Source: Candidatus Heimdallarchaeota archaeon
GTDB lineage: Archaea; Asgardarchaeota; Heimdallarchaeia; Heimdallarchaeales; Heimdallarchaeaceae
Assembly (NCBI GenBank): GCA_021399345.1
Contig: JAAFKI010000175.1
Location: forward strand, 1-64,000
DNA length: 64,000 nucleotides
Reading direction: 5' to 3'
The translations under genes were made by a program, and so were the position numbers. Shown piece after piece: positions 901 to 31,119 of the stretch (positions are counted from its first letter, which is position 1; every line of letters starts with the position of its first letter). The notes beneath the pieces were generated by a model. It did no database searches. It saw only the letters and a list, made by a program, of their open reading frames with translations, and had not been told where the DNA came from.

Positions 901-2265
901 ATGAAAAGAAAATATTTTGGCACAAACGGGATAAGAGGCGTAGTTGGTGAGTTAATTACTCCCGATTTTGTTTCCAGAATAAGTTCAGCCATTGCTTCGT
1001 ACATGCTAAATAAGGGTACAATGGTGATAGGTTCTGATTCGAGGTTAAGTAGTCCTTCTCTCAAAGAAATTGTTATTTCCAGTTTCTTAGCACGAGGAAT
1101 AGAAGTTATAGATTTGGGAATAGTACCAACTCCATTAGTACAATTTGCAGTCCCCCATTTACACGCAAATATGGGTATAGTTGTAACTGCTAGCCACAAT
1201 CCTCCAGAATTTAATGGTCTCAAGGTAATAGATTCAGACGGAATAGAGATTGAAATAGCAAAACAGAAGGGAATAGAAGAAACCTATGAAGCTGAAACCT
1301 ATCAAGATGGAAAAACTGAGACGACCAAAAACATAACAAAAATGAATCTAATACCAGAATTCATAAACCAAATTATTGGGCTTGTAGATGTTGATCTAAT
1401 ACAAAAAAGAAAACTTACAGCTGTTGTTGATGGAGGAAACGCTGTAGGAAGCTTAGTTACACCCTACATATTAAGGAATCTTGGAATAAGAGTTGTTTCA
1501 GTCAATTGTCAGCTCGACGGTAAGTTCCCAGGAAGAGGTGTTGAACCTGATCCAAGGAAACTTAGAGTGATGGGGTATGCGGCCAATCAAGTTAAAGCTG
1601 ATTTTTCTGTAGGACATGATGGAGATGCAGATCGCGCAATATTCGGGGATGAAAATGGAAAAATCTATTTTGGCGATAAATCAATTGCACTTTTTGAAAG
1701 ATGGATATTACAGAATTCTGTTAACAAGCACTTTGTTACTCCTGTTAGTTCCTCTTCAGCAATTGTTGATATTGCAGAAGATCTTGGTGGAACAGTCACT
1801 TGGACACCTGTTGGATGTATCTATGTAAGCCGAAAAATGATTGCAACTAATAGCATTCTAGGAGGGGAGGAAAATGGGGGGTTGTTTTATGCACCTCATC
1901 AAAGTGTTAGGGATGGAATGATGGCAGCAGCTTTGATGGCAAATATTTTAGCGGAATCCAAGAATACCTTGAGTGATTTAATATCCGAATTACCCCAGTA
2001 CTATCAAGCTAAAGAAAAAATTCAATGTTCGAATAATCTGAAAGAGCTAGTAATGGAACATATCAAAACCAATGTTCAAGCTGATGAAGTTATCTTGCTT
2101 GATGGTGTTAAACTCATATTTTCTGACAGTTGGGTTCTTATAAGACCTTCTGGAACAGAACCAATTTTCAGAATCTTTGTGGAGGCCAAGAGTAAGGAAA
2201 AAGTAGAAATTTTATTGCAAGATAGTTTAAAGTTGGTTGCTAAATCAATACAAAAATATCAATGA
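901..2265 (+). CDS. glmM: Phosphoglucosamine mutase / phosphomannomutase
   Basis: FGTNGIRG, TASHNP, DGDADR, GGEENG, IRPSGTEP motifs. Confidence 0.9.
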   Translation: MKRKYFGTNGIRGVVGELITPDFVSRISSAIASYMLNKGTMVIGSDSRLSSPSLKEIVISSFLARGIEVIDLGIVPTPLVQFAVPHLHANMGIVVTASHNPPEFNGLKVIDSDGIEIEIAKQKGIEETYEAETYQDGKTETTKNITKMNLIPEFINQIIGLVDVDLIQKRKLTAVVDGGNAVGSLVTPYILRNLGIRVVSVNCQLDGKFPGRGVEPDPRKLRVMGYAANQVKADFSVGHDGDADRAIFGDENGKIYFGDKSIALFERWILQNSVNKHFVTPVSSSSAIVDIAEDLGGTVTWTPVGCIYVSRKMIATNSILGGEENGGLFYAPHQSVRDGMMAAALMANILAESKNTLSDLISELPQYYQAKEKIQCSNNLKELVMEHIKTNVQADEVILLDGVKLIFSDSWVLIRPSGTEPIFRIFVEAKSKEKVEILLQDSLKLVAKSIQKYQ

Positions 2266-27101: not shown

Positions 27102-28010
27102 TTAGAAAAACTCAGAGAGAGATTTTTGACCCTTTAGCTTCAAGGGTTTTTCAGAAAAAATCATCAAATGGCCATTAATTTTTGAAAGATTAGTAACATA
27201 ATAGCTGTTATTTACTCTGGTAACTAAGAGCTTTCCCTTTACTCCAACAATTATCCCAGTAACTTGTAGTGTTTTTTCAACTTCATTTAATATTGGATTT
27301 ACATCCAATGAAGGAATATCCCCATAATATGAAGATAGGCTTATTTCCTTACGTAATAAGTCTGATGGCTCTGATACAAGAGATTGATTTTCTAGATATG
27401 ACAAAACATCCTTTGTTAATTTTCTAAAATCAGGCAGAGAACGAGTGAGATTATAATTCAATTTTTTCGCTTTTGTTGCTTTTCGTATTGTTTGTGATAT
27501 ACCTAAATCTGAGGAAATTTGTTTTTCAATTGTACGGGCTTCAAATCCATTTTTAACTCTAAGGATTTCTATTGCTACATCAGCTCCTTGATTCATCCAC
27601 CTCTTTAAAGGGTTAAATGAAACACCAACTTTCACGTCATTTGCAATAAGGGCAAGATAAACTGAGCTTTTGTGAGTTTTACAATATTCATAAGCTGCTG
27701 AATTAGCACAATTCCCAAAAGGCTTTGATGCATCACAAAAGAGGAAACAGCGTTGAAAATCTTGTTGTTCACAGGTGTAACATCTATTGTATTGATCAGT
27801 AACTGAATTGTTACAAAAGTAATATTCTTCCTTATTTATTGAATGTCCTATACATATTTTTTCTTCAGATATTGTTACGTTAAAAGAATCACCCGGAGAA
27901 AGAGATTTCTTTATTATTTCGTTAGAATTATGATTTGGTTTTCTCAGAAAAAGAAAGGCAAAAGGAAAGGTTGAAGGATTCCATTTAACAGCTGTTAAGT
28001 GCTCCATCAT
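27102..28010 (-). CDS. DUF2797-like Cys-rich protein with C-terminal PIP box
   Basis: ICIG, CYTC, VYLA..VKVGVS..RWMNQGA, GVKGKLL; ends QKSLSEFF. Confidence 0.75.
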   Translation of the reverse strand: MMEHLTAVKWNPSTFPFAFLFLRKPNHNSNEIIKKSLSPGDSFNVTISEEKICIGHSINKEEYYFCNNSVTDQYNRCYTCEQQDFQRCFLFCDASKPFGNCANSAAYEYCKTHKSSVYLALIANDVKVGVSFNPLKRWMNQGADVAIEILRVKNGFEARTIEKQISSDLGISQTIRKATKAKKLNYNLTRSLPDFRKLTKDVLSYLENQSLVSEPSDLLRKEISLSSYYGDIPSLDVNPILNEVEKTLQVTGIIVGVKGKLLVTRVNNSYYVTNLSKINGHLMIFSEKPLKLKGQKSLSEFF

Positions 28011-28026
28011 AGAATTCCCCTTAGTA

Positions 28027-29466
28027 TTATTCAGACATTACAAGTATATGTTCTTCTCCAGCAGATAGTTGTTTTTGACATTCTTCAAAAATCAAATATA
28101 TTTTTTCTTTGAGCTGAGTAGAAATAATTCCTTTATCTGTTAAATGATCAATAAGACCTTCATCGATAGTTTTTATCTCTTCTTCCTTTTTAACTAAAAG
28201 TAGTCCTAAGTCAATATATCTGAGTTTTCCACCACTGCAAAGCTCTATGGGTGTCACTATTTTTACTGTTTCACCTAAAAGATTGTCGTCTCGAAGAATC
28301 TTCATATGTAGCGACCAACTGTTTTCTTTGGCAATTATGGAGGAAGTATCACCCTGACTAATATCTATATCAAGACTATAATGGACACCTCGAGAGGATC
28401 TAAAGCTTCTTTTGATGATTAGAACATCATCTGACCAACTTAACTGACCTAAGATTCTTTCTTGGGGAGGAGAAGTCAATTTATATTCTTGCAAATACAT
28501 AATAGAATTATCACTGAAGTCGTTATCTAAAATAATATCTTTAAGGATAGTCGATATCTTACTTCCATCTAAATCTTCTGCAATTCTTTCAGCAAAAGTT
28601 GTAGTAAGTTTTAGTTCTTGTGAGTAAGCCATGAACCAGTGATACATAGGTATTGTTGGAATTACCTTGTTTCTGATTTCTGTAAGTCTTTCCTTGGCAT
28701 CTTTAACTAGCAAAACATGAGCAACAGTTTGTCCAGCTTGTAATATTCCAGGCCCATATGACGAACCAGAGATTAGTAAGTCAAGTTCTTCGGCTCTTTG
28801 AACGAGTTGATCAATGTCAGCCTGAATTGCTTCTTGAGGAGCTTTAGTGGCACTAGTTCTCATAATTAAACCGTGATCTTGAGGACGCAAATTTTTACCT
28901 AACTCAAATAATTTATCTCTATCCTCTTTAGGTAATTTTCTTGAAACTCTGACAAAATTCGCGTATCTTTCTAATATTACAGATTGACCAGGAAAATGAA
29001 TAACTGTTGAACAAACAGGTAATTGATCTTCAAATATGTTAAGTTGTTTAATTTGAACTACTACTTTTTGCCCCCGATGGAAACTTGAACCGAATAAAAT
29101 AGCATTGACATTTTCTCCTATATCTATTACTGAAAGATTTTTCTCACTATTTACATGCACAACCTTACCGTTGTAAACGGCGTGTAACTGAATTGGGTGT
29201 TGGAGAATTATTGAATTAGGAATTTGTTTATGAAACAAAGCAGTAATTGAGGAAACATATTCTTCATCTCCTTCTATGGAGATTCCATAACCTCCTAAAA
29301 TGTCCTGAATTTCAATATCATAAGGAGCCAGTTTTTCTTCAATTTTGAATAGAGAAAGTTGTTCTGAAAGAGGTTGAACAAGTTCAAAGTTTAAATTTTC
29401 AGACACTAATTTGATTAGTGCAACATCATAAATACTTCTTACACGAAATGTTGGAGATACCATCAC
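28027..29466 (-). CDS. FAU-1 / RNase E-G-like RNA-binding protein
   Basis: FRVRSIY..AL, S1-like domain, VRVSRKL, GLIMRTSA, TPIEL..YIDL. Confidence 0.8.
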   Translation of the reverse strand: MMVSPTFRVRSIYDVALIKLVSENLNFELVQPLSEQLSLFKIEEKLAPYDIEIQDILGGYGISIEGDEEYVSSITALFHKQIPNSIILQHPIQLHAVYNGKVVHVNSEKNLSVIDIGENVNAILFGSSFHRGQKVVVQIKQLNIFEDQLPVCSTVIHFPGQSVILERYANFVRVSRKLPKEDRDKLFELGKNLRPQDHGLIMRTSATKAPQEAIQADIDQLVQRAEELDLLISGSSYGPGILQAGQTVAHVLLVKDAKERLTEIRNKVIPTIPMYHWFMAYSQELKLTTTFAERIAEDLDGSKISTILKDIILDNDFSDNSIMYLQEYKLTSPPQERILGQLSWSDDVLIIKRSFRSSRGVHYSLDIDISQGDTSSIIAKENSWSLHMKILRDDNLLGETVKIVTPIELCSGGKLRYIDLGLLLVKKEEEIKTIDEGLIDHLTDKGIISTQLKEKIYLIFEECQKQLSAGEEHILVMSE

Positions 29467-29536: not shown

Positions 29537-29619
29537 TGGAGCCAGGACGGGGATTTGAACCCCGGAGGCTAATGCCAGAGGTTTTCGAGACCCCCGCCGT
29601 ACCACTTGGCTATCCTGGC
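29537..29619 (-). tRNA. tRNA-Ser(CGA)
   Basis: GCCAGGA/TCCTGGC+TCCA; loop CTCGAAA; long variable arm; TTCAAAT. Confidence 0.95.
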
Positions 29620-29649: not shown

Positions 29650-30240
29650 TTAAAAACGGATAAATTGTCTACTACCACAGTTAGTACAACCTGTAGAAGA
29701 GCAATTGGAACAGTAATGCTTTCCACATTTAGCGCATTTAGAGGCTGCTTTATTACTGCAATTAGTGCACCCTCTTATGCCTATACGATGACTAATTTTT
29801 ACTCCAGCATAAATACTACCAATAACTACACCTATCCCAATTATAGATAAAAGAATTGGACGAATTATTCTCCAAGCTTGTGATGTGTCTGGAGAAGAAT
29901 CTTTCACCAATTTTACTACGGTTGTATCATAATATTCGACTAAATTCCCCACTGGATCAACCCATGTAATATAGGGTTTCACTTCACCTATCATCATCCC
30001 AATAATCTCATCAATAAAATTGACATTTATTACTCCTGGGTTCACAGTAATTCTGAAAGGACCATCTGCAGTATAATTATTGGAAAATTCTCCATTTATC
30101 CAGCTTTCAAAAGCCACATCAACAATATCATCATACTCCACCCCATAAAGCTGGTCATAGGCTTCTACTGTTGTGAACTGAGTAAGAACTAACAACGATA
30201 TAACAACAAGTAATAGTGTATAATGGAAGCGACGACTCAT
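29650..30240 (-). CDS. Single-pass membrane protein: signal peptide, FKBP-like ectodomain, TM helix, cytoplasmic 8-Cys zinc finger (paralog 2)
   Basis: MSRRFHYTLLLVV..VEA; DDIVDVAF..ING..PFRITV..FIDEIIGMMIGEVK; TM; C-x2-C-x7-C-x2-C-x4-C-x2-C-x4-C-x2-C. Confidence 0.75.
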   Translation of the reverse strand: MSRRFHYTLLLVVISLLVLTQFTTVEAYDQLYGVEYDDIVDVAFESWINGEFSNNYTADGPFRITVNPGVINVNFIDEIIGMMIGEVKPYITWVDPVGNLVEYYDTTVVKLVKDSSPDTSQAWRIIRPILLSIIGIGVVIGSIYAGVKISHRIGIRGCTNCSNKAASKCAKCGKHYCSNCSSTGCTNCGSRQFIRF

Positions 30241-30292
30241 TAAGGAGAGAGAAGTAAGAAAACTTAAAAGAATTTCGAAGGGACACATCAAA

Positions 30293-30925
30293 TCATTTGA
30301 ATCTAATGAGGGATCTTCCTTTGCAATTTGGACAACCACTAGAATAACAGCTATCGCAAAATGCTTGACCACAGTTCTTACAAGTACCTAGAGCACTTTT
30401 TTTGCAAACCATACATCGTTTACCGAAAATCTTAGGATAAAAACGATAACCTCCATAAATTAGGAATATTGCCCCTGCTGTCCCTAAAATTCCTCCACCT
30501 ATCACAAGAACCCAATATCCGAAACTTTTCGTTGGTGGTTCAGTTGGAAGTTCAGTAACATGATAACCATTAATCTTGTAAATCTGGAGATTATAATAGG
30601 TTAAAGCTAGACCTACATAAGGTCCGTAAATAAAACCGTCCTCAGGTATTAGATCAACTTTGTCCTTTATTTCTCCGTTTCTCATGCCAATAAGGTGTTG
30701 ATATAGACCAAGAGGATCAATGCTAGTAGTTCTGATAACTATTTTAACAGGATCTTCCTCATCGCGTTCTTCAACAAGCGATCCATTAACATACAGCTGG
30801 TAGCCATAATCAAGAAGGTCCCCATCCTCTACAACATATTTATCCGCAGAAGCAGGAGTACTAACTATTGATAACCCTACAATCAGAGGTACAACAAACA
30901 TGAATAATAGAGCATATCGCTTCAT
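30293..30925 (-). CDS. Single-pass membrane protein: signal peptide, FKBP-like ectodomain, TM helix, cytoplasmic 8-Cys zinc finger (paralog 1)
   Basis: MKRYALLF..ASA; VEDGDLLDYGYQLYVNG..GLYQHLIGMRNGEIK..IPEDGF; TM; same Cys spacing as paralog 2. Confidence 0.78.
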   Translation of the reverse strand: MKRYALLFMFVVPLIVGLSIVSTPASADKYVVEDGDLLDYGYQLYVNGSLVEERDEEDPVKIVIRTTSIDPLGLYQHLIGMRNGEIKDKVDLIPEDGFIYGPYVGLALTYYNLQIYKINGYHVTELPTEPPTKSFGYWVLVIGGGILGTAGAIFLIYGGYRFYPKIFGKRCMVCKKSALGTCKNCGQAFCDSCYSSGCPNCKGRSLIRFK

Positions 30926-30979: not shown

Positions 30980-31119
30980 TGGCGAGGCAGCCGGGATTTG
31001 AACCCGGGTCGAAGGAGTTCGGCATTCAATGCAAGACTGCAAGGAATTTGACAGTCCCCCATCATTAACCAGAGATGGTACACAACCTTTCTCTTTAGGC
31101 CAGGCTAAACTACTGCCCC
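30980..31119 (-). tRNA. tRNA-Asp(GTC) with two 31-nt introns (31065-31095 at 21/22; 31018-31048 at 37/38)
   Basis: GGGGCAG/CTGCCTC+GCCA; removing both BHB-bounded inserts gives a normal archaeal tRNA-Asp. Confidence 0.92.

Follow-up and report, generated by a model that had tools for sequence, protein, structure and literature searches.

A tandem pair of FKBP-fold membrane proteins with a predicted cytoplasmic cross-brace finger in a Heimdall-group archaeon: candidate tethered foldases of the cell surface

Several folding catalysts are known to be tethered to membranes. In bacteria, on the outer side of the cytoplasmic membrane, the parvulins PpiD and PrsA are found at SecYEG or at the membrane, and TlpA, ResA and CcmG are membrane-anchored thioredoxins; these proteins rely on an N-terminal or lipid anchor and are not known to carry a cytoplasmic zinc finger. 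In the human endoplasmic reticulum (ER), FKBP11 (FKBP19; PDB 9n9j) consists of a signal peptide, a lumenal FKBP domain, one transmembrane helix and a short, conserved basic cytosolic tail, which lies beside uL22 and 28S rRNA H24. It has been described as an adaptor that binds the ribosome, perhaps without making use of its catalytic site (PMC12804085). The same succession of parts is found in two neighbouring genes, here called A and B, of a Heimdall-group Asgard archaeon. They were examined at 29650-30925 on the minus strand of a 64,000-nucleotide window, i.e., the whole stretch of contig JAAFKI010000175.1 that was analysed. Their tail is an eight-cysteine finger, unlike the basic helix of FKBP11, which has no zinc finger, and no specific sequence kinship with FKBP11 beyond the general FKBP domain was found. 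With slightly better than even confidence, A and B are regarded as membrane-tethered surface foldases that bear a cytoplasmic docking or assembly finger.

Gene A (P0001, 210 aa) occupies 30293..30925 and gene B (P0002, 196 aa) 29650..30240, both on the minus strand and both counted with the stop codon. The initial annotation had presented them as two divergent paralogs, each with a signal peptide, an FKBP-like ectodomain, one transmembrane helix followed by basic residues and a finger. All these parts were found in both proteins, which align over their full length with 27% identity (E 3e-21). For A, the assignment draws on orthologues and on a structural model. The signal peptide spans residues 1-27 (30845..30925), where the model has a hydrophobic helix at residues 3-20 and an A-x-A site in the sequence suggests cleavage between ASA and DK. 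It is followed by the ectodomain (residues 30-120; 30566..30838) and by the transmembrane helix (residues 135-160; 30446..30523), which belongs to a model helix of residues 135-167 and precedes the basic residues R161, K165, K169 and R170. The finger (residues 169-210; 30296..30421) ends in RSLIRFK and has its cysteines at C171, 174, 182, 185, 190, 193, 198 and 201.

Protein B is built in the same way, and its features likewise lie on the minus strand. A hydrophobic signal sequence ends in a small-x-small site (VEA, followed by YD), and a degenerate FKBP-like ectodomain (residues 28-113; 29902..30159) leads to a transmembrane helix (residues 125-147; 29800..29868) that aligns with that of A. 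The finger, recognised from sequence and alignment (residues 156-196; 29653..29775), ends in RQFIRF, with C158, 161, 169, 172, 177, 180, 185 and 188. The spacing C-x2-C-x7-C-x2-C-x4-C-x2-C-x4-C-x2-C, already pointed out in the earlier description, is exact in A and in B. Both ectodomains, of about 90 residues each, are acidic, with net charges of -11 and -12. From this order of parts, A and B would be type-I membrane proteins with the finger inside the cell; N-glycosylation sequons were too few and not conserved enough to serve as a check on the topology. Complex prediction with mature A (residues 28-210) and mature B (residues 27-196), based on clade alignments, returned a score of 0.00 with controls not run, and counts neither way for the heterodimer suggested in the initial annotation.

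The FKBP-like nature of the ectodomain was confirmed by structure and by profile, and an ectodomain of another kind, which had been named as one of the outcomes that would speak against the proposal, was not encountered. The AlphaFold2 model of A has a mean pLDDT of 79.8, with values of about 90 over residues 30-120. Foldseek matched this model to FKBP structures with a probability of 1.00, among them SlyD (E 1.9e-5), FKBP13 (TM-score 0.75, rmsd 2.3) and FKBP11 from an ER translocon structure (9n9j_A), the latter aligned over 157 columns. The family profile, compared with the PDB, retrieved FKBPs and trigger factor at E-values from 1e-9 down to 5e-21, and FKBP_C (PF00254) was matched by 28 of 44 relatives, the best at 8.7e-21. 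P0002 had no FKBP_C match in Pfam; its ectodomain was assigned from alignments and from a weak match to the peptidyl-prolyl isomerase (PPIase) region of trigger factor (NCBIfam, E 0.013). The fold, in which a sheet of five strands surrounds a short helix, is shared with FKBP13/FKBP2 (4nnr, 2pbc), SlyD, archaeal FKBPs and the PPIase domain of trigger factor. A and B differ from the soluble and ER FKBPs in having no insert-in-flap chaperone domain, in being tethered to the membrane and provided with a zinc finger, and in their active site, which is partly replaced in A and lost in B. When the whole model of A was compared with an atlas of fold clusters, only generic FKBP clusters were retrieved. 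A specific tie to the ER FKBPs was also considered and dropped, the family profile preferring them no more than archaeal FKBPs or trigger factor.

The residues of the active site were mapped onto the pocket of FKBP12, which we take to be formed by Tyr26, Phe36, Asp37, Trp59, Tyr82 and Phe99. Distant members of the family retain the canonical pocket in the motifs DY, xFD, GF, KGY and LxF, corresponding to Tyr26, Phe36-Asp37, an aromatic residue at 59, Tyr82 and Phe99. Clade A, which includes gene A, has Tyr42, Val51, Glu52, Leu74, Phe98 and Tyr110 at the pocket positions, and Glu52 (Asp37 position) and Leu74 (Trp59 position) are invariant in 19 clade A sequences. With the pocket partly kept and Glu52 invariant, A may retain some activity or peptide binding, as a prolyl isomerase or at least as a binder of proline peptides. 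In clade B, Asn or Ile stands at the Asp37 position (Asn in gene B) and the loop bearing Tyr82 is deleted. Judged from these residues, B is most likely a degenerate, non-catalytic paralogue, that is, a pseudo-isomerase.

The tail was analysed through 63 sequences of the family, in which the two x4 spacers are nearly fixed and the 7/4/4 spacing occurs in 47. A tail-only model derived from them (pLDDT 86.8) forms a single compact domain with a short C-terminal strand after the last knuckle. Nearly all Foldseek matches listed for this model are cross-brace folds, at TM-scores by query of 0.5-0.65, none of them significant for so short a domain. They comprise RING and U-box domains (3lrq, IDOL, BIRC7, SIAH1), B-boxes 1 and 2 (MID1, PML, TRIM), the ZZ domain of p62, FYVE domains and a piggyBac cross-brace finger. 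A search independent of Foldseek gave a flat top at Z 4.0-4.2, shared by the Ada2 ZZ, the BIRC7 RING, the COL2 B-box and the p62 ZZ. The modelled structure thus supports a minimal cross-brace finger, nearest to the B-box, ZZ and RING folds and with no single family prominent, for which cross-brace binding of two zinc ions is predicted. Two independent zinc ribbons, the alternative raised in the initial annotation, are disfavoured by the fold matches of the model, and no zinc-ribbon or DZR family was listed for the two proteins at Pfam E-values up to 10. In a distant subfamily, Cys6 is replaced by Ser, His or Asp, and a His is found between Cys1 and Cys2 (position C1+2) in 13 of the 14 Ser variants. 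This covariation is consistent with ligands 1, 2 and 6 lying at a common zinc site, as they do in a cross-brace; being confined to a single clade, it is no more than suggestive. A protein-atlas search with the tail reached a best score of 0.82, which is chance level.

At the level of sequence, the nearest family is B-box 1 or the ANCHR-like B-box, in agreement with the likeness to B-box 1 spacing that had been noted before. Only the ANCHR-like B-box and zf-B_box rose above noise among Pfam families searched with the tails, both under their curated cut-offs. PF22586 matched A and B with E-values of 0.0077 and 0.034 (16.8 and 14.7 bits, the cut-off being 27), and PF00643 (zf-B_box) matched the two proteins with 0.15 and 0.9; B-box matches were obtained in 7 of 44 relatives, the best at 4e-4. 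The consensus of B-box 1 is C-x2-C-x(7-10)-C-x2-C-x(4-5)-C-x2-C/H-x(3-6)-H-x(2-8)-C/H. The first six ligands of the tail fit this spacing, and the last pair departs from it in being C-x2-C, without His. PML B1 and MID1 B-box 1, together with COL2 and the ZZ domains of p62 and Ada2, are also its fold matches. The finger differs from B-boxes in its setting as well, lying close to the membrane on an exported enzyme and not in a TRIM-like protein. FYVE-type lipid binding was tried and rejected, since among the 63 tails WxxD and RVC occur in none and HHC in one, and Pfam PF01363 gave an E-value of 8.8. The tails are strongly basic, their net charge over about 47 residues averaging +8.6 and varying from +3 to +13, and the conserved surface residues of the finger are A178, G180, S195, R204, I207 and R208.

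The distribution of the finger over different ectodomains was followed in a census with the 63 tails as query, covering proteins of 112-2000 residues. Of the 39 proteins obtained, all those annotated by Pfam carry FKBP_C or thioredoxin/AhpC-TSA/redoxin domains, and the remainder are unannotated. The cassette of transmembrane helix and finger is therefore known only on folding catalysts that work outside the cytoplasm, and on two classic kinds of these. P0069, the thioredoxin form (271 aa, with a WCPPC motif), has a transmembrane helix and a tail 49% identical to that of gene B, and it is clustered with other redoxins and a DsbD_TM protein. The occurrence of the same cassette on exported thioredoxin or redoxin domains points to a tag for foldases, and the finger therefore looks like a docking tag for surface folding helpers and not like a ubiquitin ligase.

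In the genome that carries A and B (assembly 88.6% complete), no such thioredoxin ectodomain was found, and the search returned two tail relics only. These lie at G000 C35:3056-3145 and C12:3337-3423 (L003 and L004, about 1500-1590, minus strand), are stop-bounded and 29-31 aa long, and encode only the last six cysteines of a tail of the clade-B/thioredoxin type (KCG.F.CSDCS..GCK.CGSRQFIRM). Each relic adjoins a near-identical nucleotidyltransferase-like gene. They look like the remains of a lost thioredoxin-transmembrane-finger gene, or like part of a repeated element.

The family is well conserved and narrow in range. Word-indexed searches returned 12 relatives of A and 15 of B, the few named ones coming from Heimdallarchaeota, Heimdallarchaeaceae and Kariarchaeaceae, and an exhaustive scan of 1.84 billion cluster representatives gave only 45 matches at E-values up to 0.001. 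All eight cysteines are invariant across 24 orthologues. The range was surveyed with the tail profile in 400 genomes of the phylum, matches with E below 1e-13 being taken as strong. Such matches were present in 29 of 30 genomes of the archaeon's own family and in two further families of the same order (1 of 1 and 12 of 12 genomes), and moderate ones (best about 1e-8 to 1e-10) in another family of the class, where 19 of 22 genomes had them. Three more families of this class gave nothing with the profile at E-values up to 0.001 (0 of 3, 0 of 2 and 0 of 12 genomes). In the genomes that were searched, the family does not extend beyond a part of the Heimdall class, the closest archaeal kin of eukaryotes. 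The tandem of A and B is the rule within the genus, and three genomes of the genus have a third tandem copy. The observation goes far beyond chance; the tandem is kept in nearly every genome of the genus and family. In a highly repetitive metagenomic representative, P0036 (791 aa), a unit of about 60 aa similar to residues 12-78 of gene A occurs 11 times; the repeats may be genuine, or an artefact of assembly or translation.

The initial annotation had called the finger RING-like and had drawn from it an E3-like or sensor pair. As a transmembrane E3, the protein would recruit an Asgard E2 through its finger in RING style and so link the folding state at the surface to ubiquitylation, possibly with A active and B inactive in the way of RING heterodimers. 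The predicted cross-brace fold, with RINGs (BIRC7, IDOL, SIAH1) among its top matches, agrees with this, as do the short strand following the last knuckle, the CPxC last knuckle and, next to ligand 6 on its C-terminal side, the aromatic residue of clade A, and the four E2-like genes of the genome, on contigs C110, C136, C184 and C123. The succession of ectodomain, transmembrane helix and cytosolic cross-brace finger is also that of the PA-TM-RING ligases (RNF13, GRAIL/RNF128), which share CPxC with clade A. The details of the finger are nevertheless not those of a RING, whose consensus is C-x2-C-x(9-39)-C-x(1-3)-H-x(2-3)-C-x2-C-x(4-48)-C-x2-C. In both A and B, loop 1 has 7 residues (at least 9 in RINGs) and the spacer between ligands 4 and 5 has 4 (2-3 in RINGs). 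The tails match no RING model: none was listed for either protein at Pfam E-values up to 10, and a six-frame scan of the genome with zf-RING_2 (PF13639; E up to 1) yielded 20 sites, 14 above the curated cut-off, with no site within gene A or B. RINGs contact the E2 through a hydrophobic residue at C1+2 and through Trp or another hydrophobic residue in the segment between ligands 6 and 7. Six of the genome's own RING-H2 domains were aligned, and all have CPxC, Ile, Leu or Val at C1+2 and the Trp of that segment. In the tails, by contrast, C1+2 is polar and variable (His in 14, Thr in 13, Val in 9, Asn in 6, Lys in 5), and clade B has neither the Pro of the last knuckle nor the aromatic residue. 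Alignment of the tails with the RING-H2 set by hhalign reached a probability of 23.7%, at the price of deleting the Trp-containing segment of six residues, and five more residues in loop 1. The tail is not a member of the RING family. In addition, at least 14 canonical RING-H2 domains are already encoded in the genome, the same tail is found on a thioredoxin, and E2 occurs throughout the class (83 of 83 genomes), also in the three families, with 17 genomes, that are without the A/B family. Since E2 is universal in the class, also where the A/B family is absent, its co-occurrence is uninformative and lends no support to the earlier proposal; nor is the family found mainly in genomes devoid of ubiquitin or E2, a distribution that would have told against it. 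An E3 function is very improbable. It would make the pair a device resembling an early form of ER-associated degradation (proto-ERAD), and the evidence speaks against it.

As a transmembrane sensor, the pair would bind a peptide or an unfolded-protein signal outside through a degenerate FKBP domain, and the finger would relay it inside, e.g., via nucleic acid or a regulator. A receptor-like type-I layout, the strong conservation of clade B despite its lost catalytic residues and a finger basic enough for nucleic acid binding are in keeping with such a role. Nonetheless, a single transmembrane helix with a tail of about 40 aa offers no obvious switching mechanism, no regulator genes adjoin the pair, and distant members of the family have a canonical isomerase site. 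The cassette on a thioredoxin enzyme, too, is more easily understood as a common tag than as a common signalling output. Like the E3 inference with which it had been proposed, the sensor fares poorly when the finger fails the RING features and its transmembrane-finger unit is common only to exported thioredoxin or redoxin domains, and we consider it improbable. The finger might instead have no external partner and serve only for self-association, clustering foldases in the manner of a B-box, or as a topogenic anchor that keeps the C-terminus inside. In favour of this view, the nearest folds include B-box 1 (PML, MID1) and ZZ, genes A and B stay together in tandem, and the basic residues beside the membrane fit the positive-inside rule. 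A topogenic signal, however, needs a few basic residues and not a 40-residue finger with eight invariant cysteines and conserved surface residues. Self-association or anchoring as the only role appears doubtful, though by no means negligible.

The reading favoured here is that of tethered surface foldases. A Sec signal peptide would export the acidic FKBP-fold domain to the cell surface, one helix would cross the membrane, and the very basic finger of about 40 residues would remain in the cytoplasm. The foldase domains would most likely act on unfolded chains emerging from the Sec channel and help to fold secreted and surface proteins. The finger would be a docking or assembly module and not a catalytic output, holding the exported foldases at a cytoplasmic or membrane-proximal partner. 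A tag common to an isomerase and a thiol-disulfide enzyme would most simply be a device to place or cluster both. By analogy with the basic cytosolic tail of FKBP11, the most attractive partner for the finger would be the ribosome-bound Sec translocon. That the basic finger attaches the exported foldases, FKBP and thioredoxin alike, to the translating ribosome at the translocon is proposed tentatively, as a possibility well short of even.

Several observations weigh against this reading. P0001 on its own does not reach the FKBP_C cut-off of Pfam (E 0.16; 12.8 bits, with 21.1 required), and its isomerase activity is uncertain, given the changes of Phe36 to Val, Asp37 to Glu, Trp59 to Leu and Tyr82 to Phe. 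No partner of the finger was found. The similarity to FKBP11 is one of layout only, with a family profile that shows no preference for ER FKBPs. Sec, SRP and glycosylation genes are absent from the gene neighbourhood. Finally, genuine E3 modules also exist among cross-brace fingers this small, and the RINGs of BIRC7 and IDOL are among the top fold matches.

The gene pair lies between two tRNA genes of the minus strand, as originally reported. Directly downstream of gene B is tRNA-Ser(CGA) (29537..29619), whose position is kept in relatives. Directly upstream of gene A is tRNA-Asp(GTC) (30980..31119, i.e., 31119..30980 in the direction of transcription), which has two 31-nt introns (31095-31065 and 31048-31018), one in the D-arm region and the other at the canonical 37/38 site. 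Its identity was established by comparison with intron-less 78-nt orthologues (L034, L036, L043, L044), in which the anticodon loop is an unambiguous CTGTCAC. Within the same genus and family, tRNA-Asp occurs with 0, 1 or 2 introns (78, about 108 or 140 nt; L034, L036, L043, L044, L022, L023, L032), and the introns are therefore polymorphic in their presence or absence. The upstream tRNA was called neither by ARAGORN at default settings nor by Rfam at the gathering threshold. The intron option of ARAGORN proposed tRNA-Cys(GCA), which was rejected for an implausible arm and because the orthologue comparison gives Asp; excision of one or two segments by brute force produced His, Phe, Cys and Asp solutions alike, among which the orthologues settle for Asp. 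Downstream of tRNA-Ser, at 27102-29466 on the minus strand, are the genes of a 479-aa protein of the RNase_E_G family and of a second protein of about 302 aa. They form a conserved block, because both match syntenic genes (RNase_E_G and DUF2797) in a relative (L046). This synteny of tRNA-Ser, RNase_E_G-family gene and DUF2797 is retained in a relative with a 50% identical A protein.

Fingers of related type occur elsewhere. Outside the class, small tail-anchored Asgard proteins of 85-94 aa (family f20; L047, L048, L049) have an N-terminal finger and a C-terminal transmembrane helix, so that the order of finger and membrane segment is reversed with respect to A and B; the spacing of their finger is C-x2-C-x7-C-x2-C-x4-C-x2-H...C-x2-C. 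A further protein, of about 210 aa and by eye GNAT acetyltransferase-like (L053, G101:C36), has the same finger type at its N-terminus. This kind of finger is therefore a module of broader occurrence among Asgard archaea, often placed beside a membrane. Of the canonical RING-H2 domains that exceed the Pfam cut-off in the genome of A and B, three are in adjacent genes (G000:C192:25335-27429; L062), with 11 further sites, and on contig C136 a sub-threshold RING match is located about 1.7 kb from an E2 gene. A 481-aa open reading frame with two adjacent weak B-box-like fingers (G000:C123:62081-62293, plus strand; L007, L008, L063) is the best match of the ANCHR-like B-box model in this genome (E 0.0012), and an E2-like domain is about 8 kb away from it.

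In the literature searches, no paper was found that describes an architecture in which an exported FKBP or thioredoxin is followed by a transmembrane helix and a zinc finger. Membrane-tethered foldases and B-box-like fingers are each known, and their combination through one helix appears to be new. If the finger binds the ribosome or the translocon, A and B would represent an archaeal functional counterpart of the accessory factors of the ER translocon. Should ribosome docking prove true, the closest archaeal relatives of eukaryotes would have had a co-translational folding station across the membrane, similar to the FKBP11-bearing ER translocon, and the family would provide a handle on how extracytoplasmic folding was organised before the ER.

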